Below are positions 4,271 to 64,000 of a stretch of 64,000 nucleotides of DNA, one piece after another; within the stretch, counting starts at the first letter, position 1; each line of letters begins with the position of its first letter. This DNA is from a virus. Its lineage: Duplodnaviria > Caudoviricetes. A program made the position numbers and the translations under genes. Under the pieces are notes generated by a model. It saw nothing but the letters and a program-made list of their open reading frames with translations, was not told the origin of the DNA and ran no database searches. The stretch lies in the IMG/VR virus record IMGVR_UViG_3300028392_002123; one strand, 5' to 3'.

Positions 4271-4299
4271 ATTATACTATAAGTGGGAATTATTGTCAA
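4271..4299 (-). promoter_or_regulatory. Sigma70-type promoter TTGACA-N17-TATAAT
   Basis: Perfect consensus with 17-nt spacer upstream of vWA gene. Confidence 0.85.
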
Positions 4300-4662
4300 T
4301 TAAAGGCCGAATTTCAAACGGCATAAGAACGCACTTTCTGCGTCCTTAAACCAAATAGTTTTTGTGCCCAAAGGGGCATAATAATGCAATGGCTTGATTG
4401 ACATTTGCTTACACCATTTAACTATTTCAGTTCTAACCTTTCCCTGAGTGTAATCGATTTCACTCCAAGTCATTTTGGCATTATCAAAATAGTCAATGAT
4501 AGTATCTCTAGTGATAAGATCATTTCCCAACACACTTCTTACATATTCCATATCACCGTAGACTAACTCCAACATTGTAGACCGGAAAGGGACACCTTTT
4601 CCCGTTTCCAGTCTATCGGATTGTAAGTGGGACATGAGTCCCACATCAATATTACTCACCAA
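4300..4662 (-). CDS. Hypothetical protein
   Basis: 120 aa ORF between MoxR and vWA genes. Confidence 0.6.
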   Translation of the reverse strand: MVSNIDVGLMSHLQSDRLETGKGVPFRSTMLELVYGDMEYVRSVLGNDLITRDTIIDYFDNAKMTWSEIDYTQGKVRTEIVKWCKQMSIKPLHYYAPLGTKTIWFKDAESAFLCRLKFGL

Positions 4663-5767: not shown

Positions 5768-5803
5768 ATTGCTTTACTCCTTAAAATGTTTTGCAATGAA
5801 TGT

Positions 5804-5832
5804 ATTATACAATAGACTGGAATTTCTGTCTA
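5804..5832 (-). promoter_or_regulatory. Sigma70-type promoter TAGACA-N17-TATAAT
   Basis: Upstream of MoxR ATG; flanks resemble the 6030 and 6345 promoter repeats. Confidence 0.7.
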
Positions 5833-5843
5833 TTAACGATTAA

Positions 5844-6002
5844 TTAAATTTGTGCATCCAAGTACACACGATATGCCTGCATGGTCTTTTCTCCGTAGAC
5901 CATTTTGCCATATTTTTGAATGTCTTGCAAGAGATCGGTAAATTTCAGTCCCAAGAATTGGCATTCTTTTTGTAGAAGTTTAACAGCGGTTGCGAGTTGC
6001 AT
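5844..6002 (-). CDS. Small early hypothetical protein
   Basis: ATG at 6002 just downstream of the 6030-6058 promoter (53 codons). Confidence 0.65.
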   Translation of the reverse strand: MQLATAVKLLQKECQFLGLKFTDLLQDIQKYGKMVYGEKTMQAYRVYLDAQI

Positions 6003-6026
6003 TGTTGCTTTCTTTGTTGCTAAAAT

Positions 6027-6064
6027 TGTATTATACAACCAAAATGAATTTCGGTCAATTATTG
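6027..6064 (-). repeat. Repeated promoter unit copy 1 (TTGACC-N17-TATAAT)
   Basis: Plus strand tattatacaaccaaaatgaatttcggtcaattattg, near-identical to 6342-6379. Confidence 0.85.
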
Positions 6065-6068
6065 ATAA

Positions 6069-6317
6069 TTAATCAATTACCACAACACGATAAACGTCTG
6101 TACGCAACTCGCCGGTTTCTTCGTCGAATTGGTCTTCGTAGTCATCAACCAGTTTATCCATTTGATGATAATCACTACGCTCTATAACACCTTCGGAGAC
6201 GTTACTGACTTTTGGAGCCACTATGGTGCGCCAGTGATCGCCGTAGTTGTAAGCAAAGTGAACATCTGCTTCCTGATCCATGTACTTTAACTGCTCAATG
6301 AGATCTTTAACTTTCAT
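6069..6317 (-). CDS. Small early hypothetical protein
   Basis: MKVKDLIEQL start with AAAGGA RBS downstream of the 6345-6373 promoter. Confidence 0.7.
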   Translation of the reverse strand: MKVKDLIEQLKYMDQEADVHFAYNYGDHWRTIVAPKVSNVSEGVIERSDYHQMDKLVDDYEDQFDEETGELRTDVYRVVVID

Positions 6318-6341
6318 TGCTGGTCCTTTTGTTGCAATACA

Positions 6342-6379
6342 AGTATTATACAACCAAACCGAATTTCGGTCAATTATTG
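6342..6379 (-). repeat. Repeated promoter unit copy 2 (TTGACC-N17-TATAAT)
   Basis: Plus strand tattatacaaccaaaccgaatttcggtcaattattg. Confidence 0.85.
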
Positions 6380-6661
6380 GGTAATTTTACTACGAGTTTT
6401 TTGCACTTTTTTAGCAGGGCTTCGTTTGGGTTTTTCTACTACTTTAGTAGTAGTTTTAGTAAACTCTTTGGCCACATAGTGGGCAATAAGTTCGCGCTGA
6501 ATCATTGTAATCAAATCGCCATGATCATCATTTACAACAAATCTAACCGGGCATCTACCCCATGCACCCGTTTCGTTAAAATCTGCAAACCAACGTCTAT
6601 GATCCTTATTTTTTGCATCGAAGACCACATAAGGTCTTCCATGTAATTGAAGTCTACTCAC
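6374..6661 (-). CDS. Hypothetical protein with basic tail
   Basis: GTG start with AGGAGA RBS; downstream of the 6698-6726 promoter. Confidence 0.7.
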   Translation of the reverse strand: MSRLQLHGRPYVVFDAKNKDHRRWFADFNETGAWGRCPVRFVVNDDHGDLITMIQRELIAHYVAKEFTKTTTKVVEKPKRSPAKKVQKTRSKITQ

Positions 6662-6697: not shown

Positions 6698-6726
6698 AGT
6701 ATACTGCAAAATTTATTTAATGTCAA
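6698..6726 (-). promoter_or_regulatory. Sigma70-type promoter TTGACA-N17-TATACT
   Basis: Exact -35 and 17-nt spacer. Confidence 0.8.
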
Positions 6727-6743
6727 TTAAATTGAATTAAATG

Positions 6744-8602: not shown

Positions 8603-8653
8603 CAGTTGCCTTCCTCTCTACTTTATTTATCAAGAAAGGCATTAACAGGCTAT

Positions 8654-27152: not shown

Positions 27153-28608
27153 TGCTTAACTCACGCTCAACTTGTTTAACCCAAGCACTGACATCGCTGG
27201 TACCTATTTCTTCTACATCACCTACAAAGTCGGCAACACCGTCAATGGCCTGCATAATTCTTTCAGGTCCGTATTTTAATAGTAAATCATGATGGCCGCT
27301 TAAGATACGACGAGTAATAGCACTGACCACTGGATTAACAGCGTCGTTGCTTTCTGGTACTATTTCTTCTTTCTTCAATGCCTGTCTGCCATATTTCAAT
27401 GATGGTAGAACCGAAGGATGCAATTTCTGTTGAATTATAGAAGCAACAAAAGAATTTTTCTTTTCTTTGTTTTCTTTATTGCCTTCCGCCACACCTTGTT
27501 CACTGTGTCTAATATCAGGATTATCAATTTGTTCTGCCACGCTGTTTAAGTGATCATTGGCCACAGTAATATAACTATACATCCAACCGTCTAGACTAGT
27601 ACCTTGTTCTAAAACTTGTTTGATCTTCATTATATTTTCAAGAATAGCATTTACTTCACCATGTGCCATGCCATCAATTTCTTGATCTTCTGTTACACCT
27701 TGCTGTTTGCGACGAGCAAGTTCGCGAGCAACTGCTTTTAACTGTTGAGCAAACACAGGACTTTGACCTTGTTCGTCTTTGTGACTATTCCATAATCTTT
27801 GTAATTTTTCTGTGGGAACCTTTGACAAGTCCGCATTTTCATAGACACTTTCGTTGTGACTCTTTTTATTTTTATTGTCCAAATAACCACGCTTGTTTAG
27901 TGTAGCCCAAGCAATGTTTTCTGCATCTTTACTGCTGTGGCCTGCTTGTTTTTCGCTTTTTGCAATGTGTCCGGCCATACGGTCTACTTTAGCACCTTCG
28001 CTGACAGGAGCGCCAGTTAATGACACAGTCCATGTTTTACCAGAACTAGCAGATTTTTTCTCTGCCCATTTTTTCATGTTGTTTAAATAATTACGTTCTT
28101 CCGCACTATCGGCATAACCTTTGCCTATGATAACTTTCCAAGGTCTGCCGTTGATACTAATTTGAATATTATTTTGTTCGTGACCTAGTTCGTGCTGTAG
28201 TTCTTGACGTTTGAAATCTTGTTTTTGTTGTGCGCCTAATTTAGGTGCGTTAGGATCTGCAAAACCATGATTGTAATCTGCTTCATCTAATTCTTCACTG
28301 TTACTGCTGGTAATCTTTTTAGCTTTGGGATCAACACCTTTGATCATATTTTCTTCTTCATCAGTGTAAGCATAAGCAAATGGTTTGTCGCTGATTTCAT
28401 CATCACTGCCATTGGTTTGTTGTTCACCATCGTGGCCAGCAACATCTTTACCAAACTTATAAAAACCATAGAACTGGTCTCCACTGAGTTCGTGCATGCC
28501 TTTGATCGCGGCCTTATGATCCTTGTGCATGCCTTCGCTCATTGCATGACCTAATCCAGTTTCATTTAGCCATGCATTGTGCTTGTTGGATAGATCATTG
28601 ATTTTCAT
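27145..28608 (-). CDS. Multi-module putative internal-head polyprotein
   Basis: Start MKINDL (ATGA-coupled); short modules separated by LNE, MSE, LDE, VSE, GVTE, GVAEG, VPE. Confidence 0.7.
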   Translation of the reverse strand: MKINDLSNKHNAWLNETGLGHAMSEGMHKDHKAAIKGMHELSGDQFYGFYKFGKDVAGHDGEQQTNGSDDEISDKPFAYAYTDEEENMIKGVDPKAKKITSSNSEELDEADYNHGFADPNAPKLGAQQKQDFKRQELQHELGHEQNNIQISINGRPWKVIIGKGYADSAEERNYLNNMKKWAEKKSASSGKTWTVSLTGAPVSEGAKVDRMAGHIAKSEKQAGHSSKDAENIAWATLNKRGYLDNKNKKSHNESVYENADLSKVPTEKLQRLWNSHKDEQGQSPVFAQQLKAVARELARRKQQGVTEDQEIDGMAHGEVNAILENIMKIKQVLEQGTSLDGWMYSYITVANDHLNSVAEQIDNPDIRHSEQGVAEGNKENKEKKNSFVASIIQQKLHPSVLPSLKYGRQALKKEEIVPESNDAVNPVVSAITRRILSGHHDLLLKYGPERIMQAIDGVADFVGDVEEIGTSDVSAWVKQVERELSNG

Positions 28609-29690
28609 TTTTTGGCTCCAGTGTTGATACCACCTTGCCATTTCTTTTCACGATCCCATTTAACTCCCATGGCACGTTCTCTACGATTAGTACCTGCCTT
28701 GTCTAAACGATCGTCATCATGGTCTTTTTCGCTGCCGCCGTAGTTATCTGGATTAGCATGATGCTTTAAACCTGTGGCAGTTGGCTCGATGCGACCTTCT
28801 GCAATACCGCGTAGGCTGTCAATCCATTCACGAACTTTCTTGGGACGACCACGACCACGTTTTGGTGCATTGGCATCTGGTAGTGCATGTTTACGTGGAC
28901 GACCACGGCCGCGTTTGGTTGCATTAGCATCTGGTTCTGGACGAGTGCGTGGACGACCACGGCCGCGTTTTTCTGTAGCGTCGCTGGCAGGCGCTACACG
29001 TTTTTTCTTTCCAGGCTTTTCGTTGCCCCATTCATCATAGTTGTCTTCGTCATCATTGACTTTGTCACTTCGATAACCGTATTTCTTACCAACGTTGCGT
29101 TCGCTTTCTGGATCTTTGGCATTTTTCTTCATTGCGCCTTGCATACCTTTAAGCAAGTTCATGTCAAGACCTTCGTGCAAACTATCAAAAATTCCATTTA
29201 ATGCATTCAGGGAAGTTGCTTCTGCAGGACGATCCATGTCCATGCCTATTTGCATACCACCGCCTAGATGTGCATCTAATTGTTGTGTTACCCATTCGTA
29301 GGGATCACCTGTACGTGCCTTGGAAATGCCATATGGCATTTCACCATGCAACATGTAATAGTCAAACAATGCTTCATACAAGTCATCGGCTAATTCATCA
29401 CCCATTTTAAAGTCTTTGACTTCTTTGGGGAAACGACTTAAAATGTGTTCCAGTGTTTCTGTAGTTTCGTTGAGTTGGCCTAGTCCCTGTACAAATGCAT
29501 CATGTGTGCCTTGGTCTAAACTGGATTCATATAAACCGTAAACTTCTTTAACTTCCTTGGATTCTAATACTAATAGTTCTGTTCCTGCAAGAATAGTAGC
29601 GCCGGTGTTATAACGATGTGCTTCTACGATTTTTTTAATGTTGACACGCCCTTGGTGTGCATCATTGTCGAACATTTCAAATAGTTTCAT
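28605..29690 (-). CDS. Multi-module protein with three AT-hooks
   Basis: KRGRGRPR x2 and KRGRGRPK; leader MKLFEMFD. Confidence 0.8.
   Translation of the reverse strand: MKLFEMFDNDAHQGRVNIKKIVEAHRYNTGATILAGTELLVLESKEVKEVYGLYESSLDQGTHDAFVQGLGQLNETTETLEHILSRFPKEVKDFKMGDELADDLYEALFDYYMLHGEMPYGISKARTGDPYEWVTQQLDAHLGGGMQIGMDMDRPAEATSLNALNGIFDSLHEGLDMNLLKGMQGAMKKNAKDPESERNVGKKYGYRSDKVNDDEDNYDEWGNEKPGKKKRVAPASDATEKRGRGRPRTRPEPDANATKRGRGRPRKHALPDANAPKRGRGRPKKVREWIDSLRGIAEGRIEPTATGLKHHANPDNYGGSEKDHDDDRLDKAGTNRRERAMGVKWDREKKWQGGINTGAKK
28843..28970 (-). repeat. Three AT-hook-coding direct repeats
   Basis: cgtggacgaccacggccgcgttt at 28894-28916 and 28948-28970; variant at 28843-28862. Confidence 0.85.
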
Positions 29691-29887: not shown

Positions 29888-29922
29888 AGTATTATTTATC
29901 CAATATTAATCAATATTGAAAA

Positions 29923-31236: not shown

Positions 31237-31991
31237 AAATCGTAATAATATTCCCTAGGACGATGATCAACCATAACTAAGTTTTTATATTTATCGATAC
31301 TTCTGTCCATTAGGTCAATGTATTTATTAACATTTAAGTTAGTATCAAGTGTCAAAATCCATAGTATTTTTTTATATTTTGGATCGTACTCACTGCCATG
31401 ATAAGTTCTAACGTTATTCCAAGCAAATGAATTTGTATCATTTAAATCAGGAAAATGCATGGTTTTCCAGGGTGCTTCATCTTCTCGTATCCACAATGTT
31501 TCTCTGGGATTTTCGTCATAGAGTTTAATACGCATGGCCATTGGACAATCTACTAAACTGTCATCATCCCTGTGGTTTAAAATTTTATCAGTGCTGGACC
31601 ACATACGCCATAGGCCTGGTGTTGTCAAAGGAAAATATTCCATTAGTTGATCTTTTAATTCAGGGAATGTACCAAACACATCAACAACATGATTAGTCCA
31701 TACTTCGTCAACTTCTTGTGCGTTAATCGTTTTAAAATGACTGTTATAAACTCCATCTGGATTGGCTATGTTTGCTCTCTTTTTTGTCGCTACAGCACTA
31801 TTATTAAAATACCAATCAACAAACTTTTCATGATCGTCGGCCTTGATGCAAGGAATATCAAAGGGAACATAAAAATACTTTCCGTATGATTTTTCTAATC
31901 CTTCTGCGACCAATGAACCAATAGTTTTTCTAATAGGATCAGCCGATCTTCCCGCTATTACTCTTTCGCGCTGACCTTCATACATAGGCAT
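31233..31991 (-). CDS. Hypothetical protein, possible cupin/oxygenase fold
   Basis: NHRD (HxD) and later FAWNNVRTYHGS. Confidence 0.5.
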   Translation of the reverse strand: MPMYEGQRERVIAGRSADPIRKTIGSLVAEGLEKSYGKYFYVPFDIPCIKADDHEKFVDWYFNNSAVATKKRANIANPDGVYNSHFKTINAQEVDEVWTNHVVDVFGTFPELKDQLMEYFPLTTPGLWRMWSSTDKILNHRDDDSLVDCPMAMRIKLYDENPRETLWIREDEAPWKTMHFPDLNDTNSFAWNNVRTYHGSEYDPKYKKILWILTLDTNLNVNKYIDLMDRSIDKYKNLVMVDHRPREYYYDL

Positions 31992-41250: not shown

Positions 41251-41793
41251 TTAAGTATATTTACCTGAATTAAACCAATTAATAAATTTTGCTTCGCCGG
41301 CTTTAAGAGCATCTTCCCAAACAGTACCGGAGTCACCGTCGGCATTGTCGCTGATCCATTTCATGCTGATCCATTTAGTGTTTAGCCTGTCACAGACTTT
41401 GGCAATGGCCCATAGTTCCATGTCCACTATATCGCAGTGGTCTTTAGTCCAATTGTCAGGATCCGTGACAAAGTTATTGCCACTGCCACAGCGTATGCCA
41501 GTTTGGCCGCTGTTGTAATAAAGTATATTTTCGCCCAGCATAAAACCACGTTGACGCAGAGGTTCACAGTTGGCATCACGTTGACATACACTAGCCACAC
41601 TGAGCAGGCCTTGAATGTTTTTAAGTGCGCCCGCGCTACCATAGTTAATGACTAAATCAGGTTGATGTTGAGTTATGGCTTCGTAGGCCATCATTGCGGC
41701 ATTGGATAAACCTACACCTGTGTAGACCACAGGTGCATCAATTAAATCACGGTTTAATTCTTCGGGGAGTGCTACTAGTACTAATGTTTTCAT
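41251..41793 (-). CDS. MTA/SAH nucleosidase-like (PNP/UDP family)
   Basis: YTGVGLSNAA, INYGSAG, VDMELWAIA, KWISDNA. Confidence 0.85.
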   Translation of the reverse strand: MKTLVLVALPEELNRDLIDAPVVYTGVGLSNAAMMAYEAITQHQPDLVINYGSAGALKNIQGLLSVASVCQRDANCEPLRQRGFMLGENILYYNSGQTGIRCGSGNNFVTDPDNWTKDHCDIVDMELWAIAKVCDRLNTKWISMKWISDNADGDSGTVWEDALKAGEAKFINWFNSGKYT

Positions 41794-41911
41794 ATCAGTA
41801 TATATACTGAACAGTCAAATTTATTATTAGTAGCGATTAATGTCTTCGACAATAAAAATTAAAGTATTTAGAAACTCTAATTTTAATTCTTCTAATCTAG
41901 TCTTAGCAACA

Positions 41912-43120
41912 TTATGTGAAGTAGATGTACGGTACATTTTGAGGAGTGCCAGTAGTAATGGTCTTAACTGCCCAGGTTACTCCTGAGTCCGTGCTAACTT
42001 TTATGTTGTTGCCGGCAATTGGTACAATTACTGTAGAACCGTTTCCTATCATTCTTAGATTGGTTGTATAATTGTCACCTGTCCAGGTTGATTTATTTGG
42101 ACTGCTCCAAGATGCTCCGTTATCAGATGAAGTATATGATACGCCATTGTAACTGCCACCACCACACCAGATGACCCAGTTGTTGCCACCACAGTATCTG
42201 ACCTGTGCTTGACCGTTTGTGTTGGTTGTGACCGCAGGACTCAGTGTTGTTGAACTGAATGATGCACCGTTATTGGTACTGCGATTGATAAAAATATTGC
42301 CTGGAGAACCACCACTTGCAGATACTGCAATATACACACCATTACCATAGGCAGTACCACCCTGAACCATGTACCCTGAACTGCTAATGGAACCTCTAGA
42401 TGACCAACTGGTTCCATTGGTCGATGCGTAAACTGTATAGGTACCAGAGTTTGGATTATGTCCTAAAAATTCTGAGCCAGTCCAGGTTATTAATGAAAGA
42501 GTTCCTACACCTAAACTGCTGGCAGTTAGTGTCCAGCTAATACCATTACTTGATGTCATGTGTTGCCAGCCACTGCCAAGCCTATTATAGGCTACCCAAA
42601 GGCCATTGCCGTAGGCAACTGATGATGGTATACTACAAAGATTTGGAAATGCGCCACCGGTGTATATAGGACTGCTGGTAAATGAAGAACTGCCACCCGA
42701 GCCAGAGATCACTAGCGATCGTAATTCTGGATTACCAGAACCATTGGAAGTGGTACACAATATCAATGCAGTACCGCTTGGTCCTTCGTTTACACATTGT
42801 AAGTATGCGCCACCACCATATGAGAAATTGCTTGATGCAATAGATGTAAAATTTACAGCCGTACCCCAAGTCCAAGTTGGTAGAGTTAAAATTTGATAAT
42901 AATTATTATGCCCTGAAGTTGCAAAGTCGATGGTAGCCAGTTTACCCGACGGGCCATTGCTCTTGCCGTAAAAGTCGGCGGCCAGGCGAATAGCACCAGA
43001 TGCAACGCCAGCTAGGCCTCTAGGTACTGCTCCACCAATGCTAATTTGTGCAGTGGTGCTATTACCTAATTCAGTGTTTACATTACCTAATGAAATTGTC
43101 CCGCTGGCTTGTAGTGTCAT
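41912..43120 (-). CDS. Virion structural/fibre-associated protein with BNR-like SxDG/SxNG repeats
   Basis: MTLQASGTISL...FYGKS N-terminus; repeated SSNGISW, STNGTSW, STNNGASF, SSDNGASW, STDSGVTW. Confidence 0.7.
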   Translation of the reverse strand: MTLQASGTISLGNVNTELGNSTTAQISIGGAVPRGLAGVASGAIRLAADFYGKSNGPSGKLATIDFATSGHNNYYQILTLPTWTWGTAVNFTSIASSNFSYGGGAYLQCVNEGPSGTALILCTTSNGSGNPELRSLVISGSGGSSSFTSSPIYTGGAFPNLCSIPSSVAYGNGLWVAYNRLGSGWQHMTSSNGISWTLTASSLGVGTLSLITWTGSEFLGHNPNSGTYTVYASTNGTSWSSRGSISSSGYMVQGGTAYGNGVYIAVSASGGSPGNIFINRSTNNGASFSSTTLSPAVTTNTNGQAQVRYCGGNNWVIWCGGGSYNGVSYTSSDNGASWSSPNKSTWTGDNYTTNLRMIGNGSTVIVPIAGNNIKVSTDSGVTWAVKTITTGTPQNVPYIYFT

Positions 43121-43139
43121 AGTAGATCCAAAATAAATG

Positions 43140-43241
43140 CTCACTAAGAACGCCATTCCAGGGCACGACTCCTATAACGTTCTGCCCAGCAGCCGGGCAA
43201 CCCTTTAGTAACGCTAACGTCCTAAGGTAGGGTGTTACTAG
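43140..43241 (-). ncRNA. Candidate structured non-coding RNA
   Basis: GC-enriched intergenic stretch with several complementary pairs, starting right after an ATAAATA box. Confidence 0.45.
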
Positions 43242-43248
43242 TATTTAT
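43242..43248 (-). promoter_or_regulatory. Late-type promoter core ATAAATA
   Basis: Overlaps the stop of 43245..43907, immediately 5' of the candidate RNA. Confidence 0.5.
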
Positions 43249-43907
43249 TCGATTTGGGATCTAAGAAGCTTAATGTATTCTCGAGTTTTGTCTGTGGCCA
43301 CGCCTGTTATTTGAAAAGTAACACGCGGATGATGTCCGGCGTTGGCAGTACTGTGCGGTACATTGTGCCAGTCAAATGTAGTAATATCTCCTGCATGCCA
43401 TTTGTTATAATGAAAGTTTCCATACTCCCAAAACTGACCAGGTTGCCAGTCTGTTAGCTGTATCATTATTCTTATCACACTATCTGGATTTTCAGGATTC
43501 CATTTTTGTAATTTATCTAAATGTAAATTCCATACTTCGCCGGGCTGTTGTACATGAATACGTTCCATGCAATCAGACAAAGCAAATTTTTTACTAATAT
43601 CTCGTAACGACTCGGGTATCTGCCAATTTAAATGTGTAATAGGTAAATCTTTGCTCATACCATGTCGAGTTAGATCGTATTCTTCCGAGGCTAGTTCGTC
43701 ACTGGGACCTTGTACACCTTCTGCTTTATATCCACGTGTGGCCCATGTTGCAGGTTTAGCTTGGGCAATAATGTCATTTAGATCTTCTTGCCATGTAGGC
43801 TGTATATTACCTAGATAAATCACTGTGTCATATTCGGGGTCAATGATAAATTGATCGTGAAAATGATAATTGCTTTTTAATTTACTGGTTTCCCAACTAC
43901 TGTTCAT
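43245..43907 (-). CDS. Cupin/2OG-Fe(II)-like oxygenase
   Basis: IHVQQPGEVWNLHLD (HxD), W..GD, PHSTAN..R. Confidence 0.65.
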   Translation of the reverse strand: MNSSWETSKLKSNYHFHDQFIIDPEYDTVIYLGNIQPTWQEDLNDIIAQAKPATWATRGYKAEGVQGPSDELASEEYDLTRHGMSKDLPITHLNWQIPESLRDISKKFALSDCMERIHVQQPGEVWNLHLDKLQKWNPENPDSVIRIMIQLTDWQPGQFWEYGNFHYNKWHAGDITTFDWHNVPHSTANAGHHPRVTFQITGVATDKTREYIKLLRSQIE

Positions 43908-43908
43908 T

Positions 43909-44889
43909 TTATTCCTTGGTAATGTCTATGTTATTTAACACTGGTAAAAAGGTTGAACGCAATTCTTCTATGTGCTTTTTAAGTCCCTGCGGAGTTAATT
44001 CATTTTCTTCGTAGAACACCACATTCTGTCTGCGCCATTCACGATATTCTTCACTGCGTACAGCTTCTGCAAATGTGCGTTGATACCATTCAATGACGTC
44101 AGCGTCTGTGCCGCGGGGCAATTGAATACTCCAAGCCGCGTAGACATTGATACCTGGTGCCACTGTGTTTAACAAAGGAACATCAGGATACTGTGGCATC
44201 TTTCGTGTGCCAGTGAATCCAATGGCTTTGACCTTGCCTGCTTCTATCAATGGTCTGGCAACTGCAATGGGCATAATACCAAACTCTGTGCCATCTTTAC
44301 CAGAATAACTAGCCACACTGGTCACTGCTGGCAGTGGCCCATTAAATTTAATTGGCTGGACCATGGATTTATTTCCCTGAGCTCGATGCATGAGAAATTC
44401 GTAGGCTGTTCTGTGTGCGCCGCCACCCACTGCTACATTAATGGGTTTTTTAGTTGTATTAATTAATTTAATAAATTCCTGCGGTGTATTAATTGAGCTA
44501 CTTACGTGCGCTACTAATACCAATGGACTTTTTCCCATGGTTAATACATCAATAAAATCATCATATTTAAATTTTTTAACATTCTTTTCCCATATATCAT
44601 TGGTCACATACATGCTCATATGACTGGGCAAGGCAATGGTATAACCGTCTGCAGAACTGTCTGAGAATTTATTTAATGCAATTACGCTGTCTGCTCCGGG
44701 GATATTTTGCACAACATAGTTAAATTTAGGATATGATGTTTTTTGTACAATTTCTGCTAGTTTCCTAAATGCTATTTCATTGCCAGCACCGGGTGTATTA
44801 CCCACAATAACAGTAACTGGTTTAGTGGGTTCCCATGCATGTGCCATTAAACTAATAGATAATGCGAATAATGCCAGTAATTTTTTCAT
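43909..44889 (-). CDS. TctC/Bug tripartite tricarboxylate transporter substrate-binding protein
   Basis: Signal peptide, KPVTVIVG..PG, NIPGA, ADGYT, KVKAIGFTGTRK..YPDVP. Confidence 0.88.
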   Translation of the reverse strand: MKKLLALFALSISLMAHAWEPTKPVTVIVGNTPGAGNEIAFRKLAEIVQKTSYPKFNYVVQNIPGADSVIALNKFSDSSADGYTIALPSHMSMYVTNDIWEKNVKKFKYDDFIDVLTMGKSPLVLVAHVSSSINTPQEFIKLINTTKKPINVAVGGGAHRTAYEFLMHRAQGNKSMVQPIKFNGPLPAVTSVASYSGKDGTEFGIMPIAVARPLIEAGKVKAIGFTGTRKMPQYPDVPLLNTVAPGINVYAAWSIQLPRGTDADVIEWYQRTFAEAVRSEEYREWRRQNVVFYEENELTPQGLKKHIEELRSTFLPVLNNIDITKE

Positions 44890-45179
44890 TTTGTGTCCTT
44901 GACTGTGTCTAAATATTCAGCACGACTAATTGTAGTGCCATCTTCTAATATTACTTCACGACCCCACTGGAACATATTCCATATACGATCATGAATATAA
45001 TACATTAATGCGTTAATTGTAAATTGACAGATAAAAATAATGCTGGCAGTTTCAGCGGCGCTGGCACCGGCTCGTGCTACAAAATAAACAATGGCGGCTG
45101 TTGTGCTACCGCCAATAATTCTCCAGCTTATTAATCTTACTATGCTACGACTGCGCCAATCATTGAATTTCTTTTTCAT
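44886..45179 (-). CDS. DUF2061-like membrane protein
   Basis: RSIVRLISWRII...YYIHDRIW. Confidence 0.75.
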   Translation of the reverse strand: MKKKFNDWRSRSIVRLISWRIIGGSTTAAIVYFVARAGASAAETASIIFICQFTINALMYYIHDRIWNMFQWGREVILEDGTTISRAEYLDTVKDTK

Positions 45180-45180
45180 T

Positions 45181-45732
45181 TTATTTCCTAAAAATTAAAT
45201 CTTCTATTTCATCTGGAATCCAGGGCTTGCTCATGCGTTCTGGATGCCATACTATGCCTGCTATATTTCCGTCTATCCAAGATTCGCAGTAGCCTTCAGA
45301 ATCTACTGCCAGTACTGTGGCATTTTTATGCGGTTCAGTTATTTGTAAATTATGATAACTGTTCACTAGGTATGCATCTCCAAAATGATAAACAGTATGA
45401 CTGGTTTCCATGTGTGTTGCACATTCGTCGATTTTACCGCCTAATATATCTGTTAACATGAAACAGCCATGGCAAATGCCTAATATTGGTTTTTGCCAAG
45501 TCATCATTTCTGTGGCTATTTTTAATTCTACGCTTCTGCGTAGAGTACTGTCGTCGCCGCCGGTGATTATCAACACATCCAAGGGATCTGCTAATAATTC
45601 AAAATCCTGATCTACTATATTTGGGATAAAAGTAAGCGTATGATCTTTTAAGTATGAATACCATCCATGCTCAATCGAATCATACGCTCTGCCTTTGTGA
45701 TATAGGATCCTCTGTGTGAGTCCAATATTCAA
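45181..45732 (-). CDS. Class I glutamine amidotransferase / peptidase C26 (gamma-glutamyl hydrolase-like)
   Basis: ITGGDD, PILGICHG, VNSYH, VWHPE. Confidence 0.88.
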   Translation of the reverse strand: MNIGLTQRILYHKGRAYDSIEHGWYSYLKDHTLTFIPNIVDQDFELLADPLDVLIITGGDDSTLRRSVELKIATEMMTWQKPILGICHGCFMLTDILGGKIDECATHMETSHTVYHFGDAYLVNSYHNLQITEPHKNATVLAVDSEGYCESWIDGNIAGIVWHPERMSKPWIPDEIEDLIFRK

Positions 45733-45733
45733 T

Positions 45734-46429
45734 TTACCAACCGTAGGCGTCTGCTACCAATTTTGCACCGTCTGTGTTGGCCACGGTGTTACGGCAAGAA
45801 ATTTCATATAAATCTTTACGCATTTGAGCAACAAGAGTTTCAACGCGGCCAGCATTTTCTTCTGTGATCAATTGCTCTAATTTACGTGCGCCAATTTTGC
45901 TGTGGAAACCTTCGTCCTTGGCAATTTTGCGATAGGCACCGGAGATGAATTCATCTTCAATTGAGTCTGCCATTTGATCCCAAACAGCTTCAGCGCGACC
46001 TTCAGCAACTAACTGATAAGCGGCCAGTGCAACTGGATCTGATTCTGCTTCATACTTGGCCAATAAACTAGCACCTTTGGCTGTGTTAGCTTTAGCTTCT
46101 GCTTCAATGGCGGCCTTAACATCAACTGGCTTACCTTGGATGTGCTCAATGACTTCCTTGACTAAACGGAAGTGTACAGCTTCATCATGAGCTTGCTGAG
46201 TTAATAACTGTAGTTCAACAGGGTCTGCATCTGCACCAAGTTCTGCAACTTGACGGCTGATTTCAACCATGTTCATACGCTCATTGACCATGCGTCCGAT
46301 AAAGTGATCAACTAGCTCTTCTTGGCTAGGCTTGCTGTCAAAGTATTCTTTAACGTTTAATTGGCTAGCTTTGAATAGAGCTTGGTTGTCTTCTACTATC
46401 TTAGCTACGAACTGTTTTGCTGTCAACAT
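45734..46429 (-). CDS. Ferritin-like diiron protein
   Basis: Paired ExxH motifs DEAVH and DEGFH plus NE and AEG carboxylates. Confidence 0.78.
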   Translation of the reverse strand: MLTAKQFVAKIVEDNQALFKASQLNVKEYFDSKPSQEELVDHFIGRMVNERMNMVEISRQVAELGADADPVELQLLTQQAHDEAVHFRLVKEVIEHIQGKPVDVKAAIEAEAKANTAKGASLLAKYEAESDPVALAAYQLVAEGRAEAVWDQMADSIEDEFISGAYRKIAKDEGFHSKIGARKLEQLITEENAGRVETLVAQMRKDLYEISCRNTVANTDGAKLVADAYGW

Positions 46430-46519
46430 CGCTGACTCCTTAATTAAGATATGCTGTCATATATAATAGTATATATCTGTGCAATCATATTTATTTATCA
46501 GATCTGTGAAAAAAATCCT

Positions 46520-49529: not shown

Positions 49530-50873
49530 TTATTTATTTTTACCGCGGCGCATGTTCATTTGCCAACGTGCCAGCTGTCCTTTACGACCCGATGCATGAC
49601 TGGCCTTTTCCAGTTCGGCCATGGTGGCATGTTTGGGTATGCCATGACGAACGCTGTCTCCGGGGCGACCCGGGCCTTTGCCATCCGCAAAGTTTTCCTC
49701 TACACCCGGTTTTTTAACAGGACTCCAGTGGAACACAGTCATGCCCATACTGGGATATTCTTCCGGTTGCCACTTTGCACCCAGTATGTTCTGTATCACA
49801 GGAACAAAATACCGACGATATAAGCTGGCACGGTTATCACCTTTGGCAGTAAATGATACGCCAGGTGGACGAGCTTTGGCCATGTATTCAGGCAACTGTC
49901 GTTTAACAATATCAAGAACTGTGCTCAATATTTTCACTGTTGATCGGCTGGCACTTGTGGCCTGGCTTGGTGTGTCGTAATTGCCATTCACAGCAAATGT
50001 GATGTGCAAGGTGTCATTGAATTCACTGCGATCAAAGAACACATCTACCCAGTGGCCATCCACAGTGGCATGAAACAGACTGCGCTTTCGCTTGCGATTG
50101 GGCTTGTATTCAGCAGGTGCATTGCCCAGCTCAGTGATGGGCTCAACAGCAATCCAAGCCATGATATCGGTCTTGTTCAACAACTCGGCCGCGGCCCATG
50201 CTCTATGATTACCGTCTAAGATATAATTATTAGAATCTAAGACAATAGGATGTTTATCTATATAATGTAAACTGTGTTCTCCGGCATGTTCTGGATCAAT
50301 ATACATAACACGATTATAAGGATCATCGGTTTCACTGCCTTGTTCTTCATCATTGTATTCTTGATCGGGTATATGTATATCGGCCAGTGGCACACGTTTT
50401 AATTCATATTCTGGATATTTCATTATCAAGTTTTTTAAAAACCCACCACCCTGTTGGTCCTTGGGATGTATTTTACTTACATAACTCCATACTTGTTCAG
50501 CTGAAGCAATCTTAGTAGATATAGATGTTTCCCACACGCGAACATCTTCGCCTTTGTGCTTGTTCCAGAATCCTGCGCCTGCATCAGTTTGATCCCAGCT
50601 ACGCTGTATTTTGTAACCTTGGCTTTTAACAAAGTCATACATTATTTTAGCAATTCCTTGATTACGGAATTTTTCTTTGACAAATAAATCTTGGGGATCT
50701 AATTCCCGACCGTCGCCGATGTTAAATGTAACATGCCCTAGTTCGTTGCCCCAAGTTGAATCAAGTGCATTTACAAACAGTTGGCCATTGTCCTTGACCA
50801 TTCTGAATTGCAGGCCTTCAAAATCTTGTAGTTTACCCTGCTCACGTTCAACTATAAATTCATGTGCTCTCAT
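49530..50873 (-). CDS. Polyprotein: GNAT + ParB/Srx-like + unknown repeated module + basic C-terminal module
   Basis: Leader MRAHEFIVE; FRNQGIA; PIVL..ILDGNHRAWA; junctions VWE, ITE, GVEE. Confidence 0.8.
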   Translation of the reverse strand: MRAHEFIVEREQGKLQDFEGLQFRMVKDNGQLFVNALDSTWGNELGHVTFNIGDGRELDPQDLFVKEKFRNQGIAKIMYDFVKSQGYKIQRSWDQTDAGAGFWNKHKGEDVRVWETSISTKIASAEQVWSYVSKIHPKDQQGGGFLKNLIMKYPEYELKRVPLADIHIPDQEYNDEEQGSETDDPYNRVMYIDPEHAGEHSLHYIDKHPIVLDSNNYILDGNHRAWAAAELLNKTDIMAWIAVEPITELGNAPAEYKPNRKRKRSLFHATVDGHWVDVFFDRSEFNDTLHITFAVNGNYDTPSQATSASRSTVKILSTVLDIVKRQLPEYMAKARPPGVSFTAKGDNRASLYRRYFVPVIQNILGAKWQPEEYPSMGMTVFHWSPVKKPGVEENFADGKGPGRPGDSVRHGIPKHATMAELEKASHASGRKGQLARWQMNMRRGKNK

Positions 50874-52798
50874 CTGCTGGCCACCTTAATAGGTTCTCCT
50901 GGCTTGACATGCATGGCGGCCTGCCAATCTCGTGCTTTTTGTTCACGATTTTTTTGTCCTTTTAAGCCAGGATTAATATTCTTTGTAACTTGTTTTGTAT
51001 TGTTAAAACTCTTAGTTCTAGGTCTAACAAACTGTATCCAATACCATATACTGCTCAGCGCGGCCGCTGTGGGTGTGGCCACTATTTCAGGTTTGGCAAC
51101 AAAATCCACAGGATGATTAATAAATTTAGAAATCCACTCTCCGGCTTTTTGATAATTATATTTTCCAGTTAACTGCAAATATCCTCGGCCATGATATTTT
51201 GCGCCATCGCCGGGTTTGTCGTTGCCCAATATTTTGGCCTTGGCTGGATTAAATCTTATATCATATTTCTTTGCAAATTGTTCAGGAGTGCCATATTCAT
51301 TCATGGTGTTAAAGTTATCACTTTCATGAGCACACTGAGCCATAAATGCCGCTAACTCTGCGGGATTTTTAATAAATTGTTTGGCCCATTTTAATAAAAA
51401 ATCTACCTTGGGATTATTAGCCACGGACTGTGGTTTAGTATCTGTTTTTGCCTGTGCGCCCAAGGCGCTTACTGTGGCGCCTCCGGCCATGCCTTTAAGG
51501 AATCCTCTGCGATCAATGTCTTCCCCTACATCTTGTTTTATTCTTACTAGGTCAAATCCAATATGGTCACCGGTATCATGTACATTTTTTAATTGATATC
51601 CCCAGGATGTAGCATAACGTTGAAGTAACTTTGAATATAAACTAATTCTACTGTCTTTTCCTTGTTCTTCGCCTTTGGCGCCGGTAAATGATATAAATCT
51701 CGGCTGTTCTTTTGTCGTTAGAAATTCTTGTATGGCACTTAATACTGTGGCAAAGATTCTCTGTGAATCACCGTCGCCAGTTGCATCTTGACTATTGTTT
51801 CTCCAAAATTCAACGGTGTACACATCATCATCTTCTTTATTGAACATGATACTTAAATTAGAACCGTCTGGTAATTTAGTATACGCATCGTGGTCACCAA
51901 ACTCCCCGTGTTCCCATTGAAGCGGATAGGGCTGATTAAAGGCTTCCTCCAGACTTTCAGGAGTCCAGGCCATGTTTTTACTGCCCTTGACTGTGGGTTT
52001 GAATCCCTGTCCCTTATAGAATTTTGTCAGTTTGGCCTGGCTTACCTGTCCTTTGTCCCAGGGATATAGTGTAAGACTTATATTATCTTCTCGGGCCAGC
52101 CGCTGTAGTTCCGCCATGGCGCGAGTACCCACTCCTTGACGCAGAGGATATGCTTGAAACCATTTGACTTCCACAGCATCTTTTTTGCTCATGCTGGGCA
52201 CTAGATCAAACATGGCAAACTGTTGTTGTTCACCTTCGCCCCATACCATAATATGATTATTTTGAAATGTATGCGGATACAAGTCATAGACCTTTTTAAT
52301 CCAGTCTTTGGCACGTTGAGGTACTGTTAGTTTTATAGTGTCTTCGGCTACATCATGATTCAGCGAATTTGCCAACTGAGATATAGGAACTCCCGCGGCC
52401 TTGTAACCACGTGCTATACGAGCAATATAAGTTTTACGAGGTCTAGTGCCTTCTAAGTGTTCTCTAGTCGCCGGAGTCATAGTGTACAATTCTGCTACAA
52501 CTTTATTGCCGTCAACGTATACTGGCACAGTTTTTCTATCATATAAATGAGGATAACCTTCTGTACGATCTAGTTCGGCCAACATATTTCTGTCCAAGGC
52601 CCATAGTACTCCTACAACTTCTTGACCTGCTTCGGGACGCACATTAGCATATTGAAACATTTCATATTCAAAGTTTTTAAGCACAGCGGTGCCTACAAAA
52701 TCAGCACCACGCATTATCTTAGGATCTGTTAGCATGCCATATGCAAAATAGTATATGGGTACTGCACCTGCTTCTATTAGAAAATCACTGGCTTTCAT
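50870..52798 (-). CDS. Polyprotein: GGCT + GNAT + unknown module + Tat signal + GH19 lysozyme
   Basis: Leader MKASDFLIE; YFAYG...LDRTEG (GGCT); RQGVG (GNAT); RRGFLK; FMAQCAHES, YHGRGYLQLTGKYNY (GH19). Confidence 0.88.
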   Translation of the reverse strand: MKASDFLIEAGAVPIYYFAYGMLTDPKIMRGADFVGTAVLKNFEYEMFQYANVRPEAGQEVVGVLWALDRNMLAELDRTEGYPHLYDRKTVPVYVDGNKVVAELYTMTPATREHLEGTRPRKTYIARIARGYKAAGVPISQLANSLNHDVAEDTIKLTVPQRAKDWIKKVYDLYPHTFQNNHIMVWGEGEQQQFAMFDLVPSMSKKDAVEVKWFQAYPLRQGVGTRAMAELQRLAREDNISLTLYPWDKGQVSQAKLTKFYKGQGFKPTVKGSKNMAWTPESLEEAFNQPYPLQWEHGEFGDHDAYTKLPDGSNLSIMFNKEDDDVYTVEFWRNNSQDATGDGDSQRIFATVLSAIQEFLTTKEQPRFISFTGAKGEEQGKDSRISLYSKLLQRYATSWGYQLKNVHDTGDHIGFDLVRIKQDVGEDIDRRGFLKGMAGGATVSALGAQAKTDTKPQSVANNPKVDFLLKWAKQFIKNPAELAAFMAQCAHESDNFNTMNEYGTPEQFAKKYDIRFNPAKAKILGNDKPGDGAKYHGRGYLQLTGKYNYQKAGEWISKFINHPVDFVAKPEIVATPTAAALSSIWYWIQFVRPRTKSFNNTKQVTKNINPGLKGQKNREQKARDWQAAMHVKPGEPIKVASR

Positions 52799-53250
52799 TT
52801 TCCATAGCCCCAATGCTTTTTGCCATTTTTACGGTGCTTTTTAGATTTCTTAATTATTTGATCTGGTTCACCAAAGTCTACTTTAATCACACGACCAGTC
52901 TTGGGATTCTTTGTATAGACTTTAATTTTTTCTTTTTTCTCAATGACAGTTTCTTCACCCATGTGTTTAAAATACTGTACTTCTCGTTCACGCTTTTCAG
53001 CACCAGCATGAGTAGGATACTTACCCAAATTTTTACCAGTTTTTTTGCTTTTTAATTCCCAGCCACCTTTGACTTTGACAATATGTTCTAGCAGAGTCAT
53101 GTCATTTCCCGGAGATTCGACTATGTATGTTGCTATATGAGTTGTTTTATTGATGCCAACAATAACTGTTTCGACAATAGTGCCGTTTATGTTAAATTCT
53201 AAAATATCGCCAATTTCTGGCTGGCCAGTATCAACTTCGTTTAATCGCAT
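52795..53250 (-). CDS. Small multi-module protein with CTS-like leader
   Basis: MRLNE; modules after LLE and VIE (KNLGKYPTH..., KVYTKNPKTG). Confidence 0.65.
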   Translation of the reverse strand: MRLNEVDTGQPEIGDILEFNINGTIVETVIVGINKTTHIATYIVESPGNDMTLLEHIVKVKGGWELKSKKTGKNLGKYPTHAGAEKREREVQYFKHMGEETVIEKKEKIKVYTKNPKTGRVIKVDFGEPDQIIKKSKKHRKNGKKHWGYGK

Positions 53251-54803: not shown

Positions 54804-55812
54804 TGAGCATATTTGCAAGACTAAAACTAGCAAGGTTTTTGCCTTTACTTTCACACATAATATCTGCCCATTCGTTATGGGTCAGGGCCCAACGATTAAC
54901 AGCATCATTCCAATAAAAATTGCTGTGCGCTCGTAGCTTGCCTTTTTTATAGCCACTTTCCATCAAGGATGTAAGAGCGGGTAGCTGTGATCCGGAATGG
55001 CCGACAAGTACATCTTCCCTACTAACGGAATAGTGTATAGTAGGCCTAACGCCGCGCCAACTATCAATAACCTTTTTAATACGATCATCAGTGTTTTCAA
55101 TATATTCTCCAGTTTTAATCCAATGATGGTGAATATCAAGTACCAAGGCACAAGTATCTACCAATTCTAAACTATCTTCAATGCCCCAGGAAATTTCGTC
55201 GTTCTCAATGGTAAGACAATTACGTGCTTCTACACTGAGACGTTTATGTGCCGCCCTAATGCCTGCTGGCCCACGTCTTCCGGCGATATGTACATTAATC
55301 TTAAAGTCCTGGAACGACTTTCCGTATCCCATCCAGCGAACCATATCCGCATGATATTCAAACTCCTCTATACTACGTTCAACTATTTGATCAGATTCGC
55401 TAGCCAAGACGCAAAACTGCCCAGGATGAAAACTAAGCTTGACGCCATTAGACTTAGCACTCCCGCCAATGACGCCAAAATTTCTGCTACAATAATCAAC
55501 AACATCAGGCCTACGCCAAAAATAACTCCAACTGGGTTCGGTATAAGCAGGTAAAATATCACTGCTAAGACGAACCATCCTAAGATTTTCTTCAAGATTT
55601 CCTACCTTTTCAACTAGCAAACGTGTTGCTTCTATGTTCTGGACCATTAAGTCCCATAGCTTTTGTTCAGCAACTTCTTTAGTTTGCCTATTTAGCCATG
55701 TGATAGTGGTCGTACCAGTATTGTACTTTTTACAATCGTCCTTGGGTTTAATCCCATTGACCTGTGCAGGATGATCAATCCATTTGCAAGCGAAACCAAC
55801 TTTTTTAGTCAT
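54796..55812 (-). CDS. uvsE: UV damage endonuclease
   Basis: GFACK, VRLSSD, SFHPGQF, INVH, LTIENDE, VLDIHHH, HYS, LRAHS, IMCESKGK. Confidence 0.93.
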   Translation of the reverse strand: MTKKVGFACKWIDHPAQVNGIKPKDDCKKYNTGTTTITWLNRQTKEVAEQKLWDLMVQNIEATRLLVEKVGNLEENLRMVRLSSDILPAYTEPSWSYFWRRPDVVDYCSRNFGVIGGSAKSNGVKLSFHPGQFCVLASESDQIVERSIEEFEYHADMVRWMGYGKSFQDFKINVHIAGRRGPAGIRAAHKRLSVEARNCLTIENDEISWGIEDSLELVDTCALVLDIHHHWIKTGEYIENTDDRIKKVIDSWRGVRPTIHYSVSREDVLVGHSGSQLPALTSLMESGYKKGKLRAHSNFYWNDAVNRWALTHNEWADIMCESKGKNLASFSLANMLND

Positions 55813-55817
55813 AGTGT

Positions 55818-55846
55818 ATTGTACACTATATTTTAATTATTGTCAA
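55818..55846 (-). promoter_or_regulatory. Sigma70-type promoter TTGACA-N17-TACAAT
   Basis: Immediately upstream of uvsE ATG. Confidence 0.78.
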
Positions 55847-56210
55847 TAAAAGATTTATAAATAACCCATTTTCCCGAACAATATTCGTGGGCACCTTTGT
55901 GTACTTTCCAATTTATTTTGGACAGCATAGATTCGGTATTACCGTAGGTAAAAGTTATTTCTGCTTGGTCCCCGGCCATCAATTTATTTCTAAACTTGGA
56001 ATCCAACATCACACTCATTGCCTGCTTTGAGTCTTGAATAAATTCGATGCCAATTGGTGTTTGAGTAAGCCATTGGGGTAACATACTAAGAATGAAGCCA
56101 CCTTGAACAACACCCTGTACGCTGTGTATAGGTCCGTTATCTCCGGTTAATTTACCAAAATTATCCACTTGTTCTTTGGTAAAACTTAGGGGTACAGTGG
56201 CAGTCTTCAT
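55833..56210 (-). CDS. MaoC/PhaJ-like hot-dog fold dehydratase
   Basis: FGKLTGDNGPIH (D-x4-H dyad), VVQG. Confidence 0.7.
   Translation of the reverse strand: MKTATVPLSFTKEQVDNFGKLTGDNGPIHSVQGVVQGGFILSMLPQWLTQTPIGIEFIQDSKQAMSVMLDSKFRNKLMAGDQAEITFTYGNTESMLSKINWKVHKGAHEYCSGKWVIYKSFIDNN

Positions 56211-60532: not shown

Positions 60533-64000
<3,468 letters not shown>

Follow-up and report, generated by a model that had tools for sequence, protein, structure and literature searches.

A single-copy structured RNA family of large freshwater phages with conserved unpaired bases complementary to 23S ribosomal RNA

In the 64-kb stretch of phage DNA analysed here (the window), a spacer of about 124 nt separates two genes of the minus strand, on which all the genes around it lie. 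The upstream gene encodes a 220-aa protein for which no family was found (43245-43907, minus; stop TAA at 43247-43245), and the downstream gene a 402-aa protein with BNR-like repeats (41912-43120, minus) that has no Pfam family and a weak PHROG match of unknown function. The spacer stands out by its G+C content of 50-52% against roughly 30-45% in most nearby windows, in agreement with the initial annotation, which had singled it out as a GC-rich stretch. Within it lies an RNA element of 99 nt (43236-43138, minus) that runs from AACACCC to AGUGAGCA. These limits were set where the similarity to four relatives (L003-L006) stops, since the flanks of those contigs are unrelated to the window. The element scores 112 bits (E = 2e-31) with the R1 covariance model and is the sole copy within the 64-kb window. 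The first codon of the longest downstream ORF, ATG 43156, falls within P4, one of the helices of the element. At this position L003-L006 have an AUG that is followed by a stop after three codons. Therefore the 12 codons from 43156 to 43121 are probably not coding, and the gene most likely starts at ATG 43120 (MTLQASG...), 17 nt beyond the element. No repeat within the window involves the element, and ARAGORN run on the whole window gave no tRNA or tmRNA. Repeats found elsewhere are long 9-nt periodic ones, corresponding to collagen-like Gly-X-Y arrays, in a protein of ~1,130 aa (60533-63928, minus), which also holds four larger repeat blocks of 260-460 nt, and three tandem 54-nt repeats (28843-28971) inside a 361-aa ORF (28605-29690, minus). 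Around the element we also noted a cluster of auxiliary genes (41251-46429, minus) with a purine/uridine phosphorylase-like protein, an orphan TctC-type solute-binding protein, a DUF2061 membrane protein and a class-I glutamine amidotransferase, of which the TctC gene presumably points to a betaproteobacterial host.

A AATAAATA box, a candidate late promoter, is present at 43249-43242 on the minus strand (43242-43249 in plus coordinates), where it overlaps the stop of the 220-aa gene and lies 5 nt before the element; this is the ATAAATA that had been reported in front of the spacer RNA. The motif is depleted in the window (10 copies observed vs 24.7 expected), and its copies map to 2975-2981, 8624-8630, 29893-29899, 31288-31327, 43242-43248, 46488-46498 and 49531-49537. 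As 9 of the 10 are on the coding strand and most lie just upstream of gene starts, the late-promoter role proposed in the initial annotation is plausible, and ATAAATA may plausibly be the late-promoter motif of this phage group. The T4 consensus TATAAATA showed no enrichment in the window. Boxes similar to ATAAATA come after the RNA element in two other contigs, L042 and L074. Another module of ~35-55 nt, made up of TTGACA, about 17 nt and TATAAT, is repeated on the minus strand at 4271-4305, 5791-5845, 6017-6071, 6332-6386, 6698-6732 and 55805-55859. These modules are probably early sigma-70-type promoters, which would suggest a host with standard sigma-70 promoters. No Shine-Dalgarno motif was matched before ATG 43120, so that the next gene does lack a clear one, as had been remarked. 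It may be noted that a Shine-Dalgarno-like motif is present in 27 of the 60 window genes and absent from the other 33, and its absence downstream of the element is therefore unremarkable.

The spacer holds a real structured RNA, which consists of three consecutive hairpins (P2 with P2a, P3, and P4 with P4a) and a conserved tail. All parts are given here as read on the minus strand. Helix P2 pairs ACCCU (43229-43233) with AGGGU (43204-43200) and encloses the small hairpin P2a (43220-43211). The latter belongs to a stretch antisense to 23S rRNA (43208-43230) that is composed of the unpaired loop CUACCUUAGGA, P2a itself and GUUAC. P3 is the hairpin UGCCCGG-CUG-CUGGGCA (43183-43199) with the apex CGGCUGCUG and one conserved G-U pair. 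P4 (43148-43182) has a stem of 9 bp (43182-43174 with 43156-43148) and contains the inner hairpin P4a, A-GG-AGUCGUGC-CC-U (43173-43160), and a GGA bulge (43159-43157). The tail (43138-43147) is conserved and single-stranded and reads UUAGUGAGCA in the window, the family consensus being (A)AAGUGAGCA. Its AGUGAGC is invariant in 160 of 160 versions, the same motif having been among the criteria used to collect them. A partner for the tail was sought in the element, in rRNA and in the phage, and none was found beyond chance (the single window match is at chance level). A pseudoknot between AGCA of the tail and UGCU of the P3 loop was considered, and here both sides are invariant.

Support for this fold comes from the relatives. 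A plain, unfitted MAFFT alignment (A1) of the window and 63 versions (64 sequences) was used for five helices with 28 pairs. In this alignment 93.9% of the cells pair, as opposed to 34-51% when the partners are slid by 1-3 columns. Compensatory changes were seen at 17 of the 28 pairs (182 cells), and none of 500 shuffles reached the observed value on any of five measures. An alignment of 86 diverse versions fitted to the model has 91.9% of its cells paired and compensatory changes at 22 of 27 pairs, a count that leans toward the model's own structure. RNAalifold independently recovered P3, P4 and P4a. On dividing the evidence by helix, P2 has compensatory changes at all 5 pairs (CACC/GGUG, CACAC/GUGUG, CAUCU/AGAUG), and P2a covaries as ACG/CGU, ACC/GGU and CGGUA/UACCG. 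The lower three pairs of P3 are 99-100% paired, each with 2 to 4 standard pair types, and four of its pairs have compensatory changes in alignment A3, while its apex CGG-CUG-CUG is constant, as it had been fixed in both collecting scans. P4 is the best-supported helix, with compensatory changes at 8 of 9 pairs and at 3 of 3 in the inner hairpin. The window itself contributes a private compensatory change in P4a, having A-U where relatives have G-C or C-G. Since the G-U pair of P3 is conserved and U-G is frequent in P4, positions at which the opposite strand would give A-C mismatches, the RNA is the minus strand, which is also the strand of the genes. In folding energy the region has no advantage over its shuffled counterparts (z = -1.18, +0.49 and -1.03). 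As thermodynamics is uninformative here, the evidence for the structure rests with the 160 relatives.

The four complementary pairs listed in the initial annotation were all found at their plus-strand positions, and two of them are part of the supported fold, namely ACCCT 43200-04 with AGGGT 43229-33, which is P2, and TGCCC 43183-87 with GGGCA 43195-99, which is P3; both covary across the relatives. The other two helices had to be given up. Only 51-59% of the cells pair in TAGTAAC/GTTACTA, which would cross P2, zero compensatory changes were seen in CCT..AACGT/ACGT..AGG, and together the two pair in 66% of cells, the level of the shuffled control. P4 and its inner hairpin had been missed altogether. 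Yet the broader claim of a structured non-coding RNA without a family that could be named was borne out by the covariation among relatives and by Rfam 15, which gave 0 matches in the 64-kb window at gathering thresholds. A search of 601 nt with E up to 10 gave a single hit, to 6A RNA on the opposite strand (21 bits against a gathering threshold of 41, E = 0.23). Also, between 42800 and 43600 the sole terminator-like site is on the plus strand and none is on the minus strand, in keeping with the reported lack of a U-tract.

The relatives were collected from IMG/VR by sequence pattern. An exact 26-mer from the middle of the spacer matched the four contigs L003-L006. The 17-mer of the central hairpin was found in at least 119 contigs, with the whole module in at least 114 and 63 distinct versions among the matches listed. 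A looser pattern without the canonical hairpin added at least 120 further contigs, with 96 more versions among the matches listed. The family thus comprises at least 230 IMG/VR phage contigs and about 160 distinct versions among the matches listed. Two patterns covering all variants gave zero matches in 185,579 prokaryote species genomes, and a nucleotide search of GenBank phages with the locus and the element found no relative (two chance matches at E = 1). A single significant copy was present in 9 of 10 phage records searched whole, among them genomes of 353-365 kb with an estimated completeness of 96-100%. One relative of 161 kb, estimated to be 96% complete, has zero copies. The sequencing runs that contain the window stretch are DNA runs only, mostly labelled as freshwater metagenomes. 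The family is therefore one of single-copy small RNA genes of large freshwater phages, and it is restricted to phages.

The conserved unpaired bases of the element match ribosomal RNA in the antisense sense. For this comparison the E. coli rRNA sequence was used as a stand-in and may differ from that of the phage host. In the window the loop CUACCUUAGGAC is the exact reverse complement, over a 12-mer, of E. coli 23S 1922-1933. When the loop is taken together with P2a, which is itself paired, and GUUAC, 21 of 24 positions are complementary over 23S 1909-1933, a segment made up of the 3' half and loop of helix 69 and the junction to helix 70. Other versions reach 22 of 24 positions over the same segment, and L021 has an exact 15-mer to 1916-1930. 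The local alignment score of the window is 15.5 vs 9.98 +/- 1.1 in shuffles, with 1 of 400 shuffles reaching 15.5. About 2% of shuffles contain a 12-mer rRNA match and 0.55% contain both a 12-mer and a 10-mer, which makes the result moderate for the window alone. Among 158 versions the core at 23S 1921-1931 is complementary in 79-100%. The bases facing 1924-1930 are invariant, both search patterns having fixed them, and for 1921-1923 and 1931 a complementary base is present in 79-96% of the versions. Opposite U1923, A is replaced by G in 9 of 10 substitutions, so that a G-U wobble is kept. The part that matches 23S coincides with the family's conserved unpaired loop (loop 1), where conservation extends over 10-12 nt; this loop contains ACCUUAGG and also CUUA, which fits the YUNR U-turn pattern. 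Thus conserved unpaired bases between covarying stems complement 23S 1921-1931, as is found in loop-presenting antisense RNAs.

The loops of P4 differ between versions. The alternative AUUCGCUAC(C) (AUUCGCUACC) complements 23S 1929-1937, which adjoins the first site, and the ACGCCA loops AAACGCCAUUC and GUUACGCCAGAC complement 23S 1968-1979 (within 1967-1980). For each of three P4 loop versions, one of the best rRNA matches (8-9 contiguous pairs) falls in the same 23S neighbourhood, these matches being tied with 9-pair matches elsewhere in rRNA, and with G-U allowed, chance matches of 8-11 bp to other parts of rRNA are found for short loops. For the P4a loop of the window itself, AGUCGUGC, no significant match to rRNA was obtained. 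The P3 apex is an exact 10-mer complement of 16S 518-527 (the 530 loop), which about 24% of shuffles equal. Because of this frequency, and because the apex lies within a stem with a 3-nt loop, the match carries little weight, and standing alone it was rejected as not significant. We also discarded the whole-length RNAduplex comparison with rRNA, as it returns meaningless long gapped duplexes (5 of 150 shuffles do likewise), and a second, cis target of loop 1 in phage genomes, for which the counts of loop complements equal the control.

Conserved motifs in loops and apex between freely covarying stems are also typical of protein-recognition hairpins. The element could then be the scaffold or sponge of an RNA-binding protein from phage or host, for instance one that recognises GGA in loops as CsrA/RsmA do, with the rRNA likeness a coincidence or a relic. 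GGA is indeed present in loop 1 and around P4a, the P3 apex with its conserved G-U and 3-nt loop is poor for base pairing, and the tail has no RNA partner. But the element is not accompanied by any protein gene in its various contexts, the conservation of loop 1 exceeds what a GGA core alone would need, and coincidence leaves unexplained why the best matches of different P4 loops share a 23S neighbourhood. We consider such a protein-binding RNA quite unlikely.

Across the family the genes flanking the element vary. Downstream we find a GATase-like/BPL_N protein (the commonest), a fatty-acid desaturase, a gamma-glutamyl cyclotransferase, several unknowns and, in the window, the BNR-repeat protein, with at least 8 unrelated downstream genes seen; upstream neighbours include a HesB-type Fe-S protein, a staphylococcal-nuclease homologue and others. 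What comes after the element also differs, being a sigma-70-like promoter with a strong AGGAG in some phages and, in others, an intrinsic terminator, an ATAAATA box or a gene on the convergent strand. The element precedes the gene in only about 13 of 77 loci that encode the GATase-like protein, and in 3 a divergent copy lies downstream on the opposite strand. As most GATase-like homologues lack the element, a dedicated leader of that gene is rejected. A constant position before one gene family was not observed, and since the flanking genes differ between phages the element is not a gene-specific leader switch, contrary to the initial annotation, which had offered a leader switch or riboswitch. 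The movement can be followed between close relatives. The nearest relative of the 220-aa gene (65% identity, in L001/L002) has the next gene directly behind it, and in the L002 contig (L330, 1505-1610) the element lies ~3 kb away from that relative, behind a different gene and facing a convergent gene, so that it sits there at the 3' end of a transcript. Hence the element has moved between close relatives and behaves like a single-copy RNA gene moving within a plastic genome region, unlike a leader switch. Separately, in L108 a stand-alone gamma-glutamyl cyclotransferase gene was seen directly behind the RNA element, and the window encodes at 50870-52813 (minus) a 647-aa protein whose N-terminal part is like gamma-glutamyl cyclotransferase and whose C-terminal part is like an endolysin or chitinase.

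The commonest downstream genes, GATase-like and gamma-glutamyl cyclotransferase, share glutamyl chemistry, which would suit a ligand-sensing riboswitch. The element, however, has neither a closing helix nor an expression platform, as there is no minus-strand terminator and no Shine-Dalgarno motif to sequester, and the tail is conserved rather than dependent on context; the many GATase-like homologues without it speak in the same direction. A site acting at the DNA level, such as a homing-endonuclease target, may be considered along with it, because the plus strand resembles the 23S segment that we take to be the I-CeuI site in 23S rDNA. But no endonuclease gene is linked to the element, and the compensatory changes together with the G-U pairs reveal selection on the structure of a minus-strand RNA, not on duplex DNA. 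We regard both a riboswitch and a DNA-level site as highly improbable.

The arrangement of the flanking genes bears equally on an action in cis, whereby the element would serve its own mRNA as a processing site, a protective end structure or a ribosome-recruiting module. In the last variant, ribosomes would be handed to an ORF 5-26 nt downstream and the rRNA complementarity would be used in cis. The stop of the upstream ORF is usually within a few nt of the 5' edge of the element, and in many unrelated contexts, including the window (17 nt), an ORF without Shine-Dalgarno motif starts 5-26 nt past the tail, while more distant next ORFs have a promoter and strong AGGAG of their own. Also the RNA has no terminator of its own in the window. 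Against this, the absence of a Shine-Dalgarno-like motif is not special in the window, as noted above, and in the several phages where it is followed by promoter, terminator or convergent gene there is no ORF to serve. No route is known by which pairing with 23S instead of 16S would lead to initiation. Phage genomes have many processing sites of the kind of the T7 RNase III sites, as opposed to the one occurrence per genome of this element. An action in cis thus appears unlikely.

Scattered intergenic contexts and a conserved core are typical of phage ribozymes, and the element has both. It might be a new self-cleaving ribozyme that cuts a polycistronic transcript, or a two-arm RNA that acts in trans at 23S helix 69-70 and positions it for cleavage or modification. 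Many relatives have a loop 1 and a P4 loop whose target segments, 1920-1931 and 1929-1937, adjoin like those of two substrate arms. The arms, however, overlap on GGU with no free site between them, and the window version has no second arm. The hammerhead, twister, pistol, hatchet, HDV-like and hairpin classes gave no Rfam match at E up to 10, and the supported fold is without the nested pseudoknots or junction cores of known self-cleaving classes. Resemblances to HDV-like, twister and ZTP-like RNAs found no support in the same Rfam search or in the supported fold. C/D guides carry RUGAUGA and CUGA, and H/ACA guides an ACA box ~14-16 nt from a pseudouridylation pocket, both with partner proteins; no C/D-type boxes were seen in the listed sequences. 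Moreover, destruction of ribosomes is hard to square with the phage's need for them. We consider a catalytic or guide RNA very unlikely.

Of the modes considered, pairing with 23S is the one we rate likeliest, because the anatomy of the element is that of loop-acting antisense RNAs, with covarying stems, conserved unpaired bases and a YUNR-like CUUA. Our tentative explanation, to which we give slightly less than an even chance, is that the element is a loop-presenting antisense RNA that pairs with host 23S rRNA. In the window, transcription would probably start from the ATAAATA box, with the RNA at the 5' end of the late mRNA for the BNR-repeat protein; in other phages the RNA lies at the 3' end of a transcript. 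It would present conserved unpaired or apical motifs from three hairpins to the host 23S rRNA. The P2 internal loop with P2a would pair with the junction of helix 69 and helix 70 (nt 1909-1933), and the P4 loop of many relatives with nt 1929-1937 or 1968-1979. Since 1921-1933 is largely paired or packed in the mature 50S and a duplex of 10-24 bp with 23S requires an unfolded or immature target, the target is expected to be immature or free 50S, that is, nascent 23S, late assembly intermediates of the 50S, or the interface face of free 50S. As an outcome, large subunits may be held, blocked or redirected by the phage; subunit joining or late 50S assembly may be blocked, or subunits may be tethered to phage transcripts. 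The fuller version, in which the phage RNA seizes host rRNA at the interface formed by 23S helices 69-71 and possibly also the 16S 530 loop through the P3 apex, is possible but doubtful on the sequence matches at hand. We infer both the use of the complementarity, i.e. that pairing with rRNA occurs, and its effect from these matches. Two precedents make an antisense action on 23S plausible. Helix 69 can be reached, as a peptide nucleic acid directed there stops translation and growth of E. coli (Kulik 2017, cited in PMC12828698), and in H. pylori an antisense RNA pairs with the 23S-5S precursor (PMC6582327).

The element belongs to a structured RNA family for which no Rfam match or literature description was found, the full-text literature having been searched both by topic and by motif sequence. 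Phages are known to take over translation by means of proteins, tRNAs and ribosomal proteins, but we know of no phage RNA that addresses ribosomal RNA itself. The conserved bases could pair with the helix 69-70 junction, a highly conserved functional part of the ribosome at the subunit interface, and if this is true a bacterial virus would for the first time be seen to target the ribosome with an RNA factor. Even if the pairing is not real, the family would merit inclusion in Rfam as a large and well-supported class of orphan RNAs. More than 10,000 candidate structured RNAs of viruses have been catalogued from IMG/VR (PMC10690425), in a study that draws on the same data source and is comparative too, and a family of this size may be among its candidates. 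The text of PMC10690425 describes no motif with rRNA complementarity and reports that no rRNA prediction overlapped its candidates.

As for known systems, stable and covarying stems that show conserved unpaired bases complementary to a target are common to the element and to CopA/CopT, RNA I/RNA II and OxyS-fhlA. These, with CopA/CopT from plasmid R1 and RNA I/RNA II from ColE1, are loop-presenting antisense RNAs. The likeness to RNAs of the CopA/CopT type further includes the YUNR-like CUUA in loop 1 and the use of more than one loop for one target region. The targets differ. In CopA/CopT-type systems the target is an mRNA or a primer, most often transcribed from the other strand of one and the same locus, whereas the putative target here is host rRNA, encoded elsewhere. 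The snoRNAs (C/D, H/ACA) and U3, guide and chaperone RNAs of ribosome biogenesis in eukaryotes and archaea, are likewise short and structured and have unpaired segments complementary to conserved sites of rRNA, with bipartite guides that flank the target. The element is unlike C/D guides in that neither RUGAUGA nor CUGA was seen in the listed sequences, and to our knowledge no snoRNA-like guide system exists in bacteria or phages. Closer in target is the antisense RNA of H. pylori, a bacterial RNA that pairs with the 23S precursor and alters its RNase III processing; it is encoded by the cell opposite the rRNA leader and pairs with this leader, which is not part of the mature RNA (PMC6582327). 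By comparison, our element is phage-encoded, structured and putatively acts in trans, and it complements the mature core (helix 69-70). The same rRNA region is addressed by the peptide nucleic acids against helix 69, which are artificial short oligomers (Kulik et al. 2017, as cited in PMC12828698), and the RNA described here, if it does pair with 23S, would be a natural counterpart of such antisense antibacterials aimed at helix 69.
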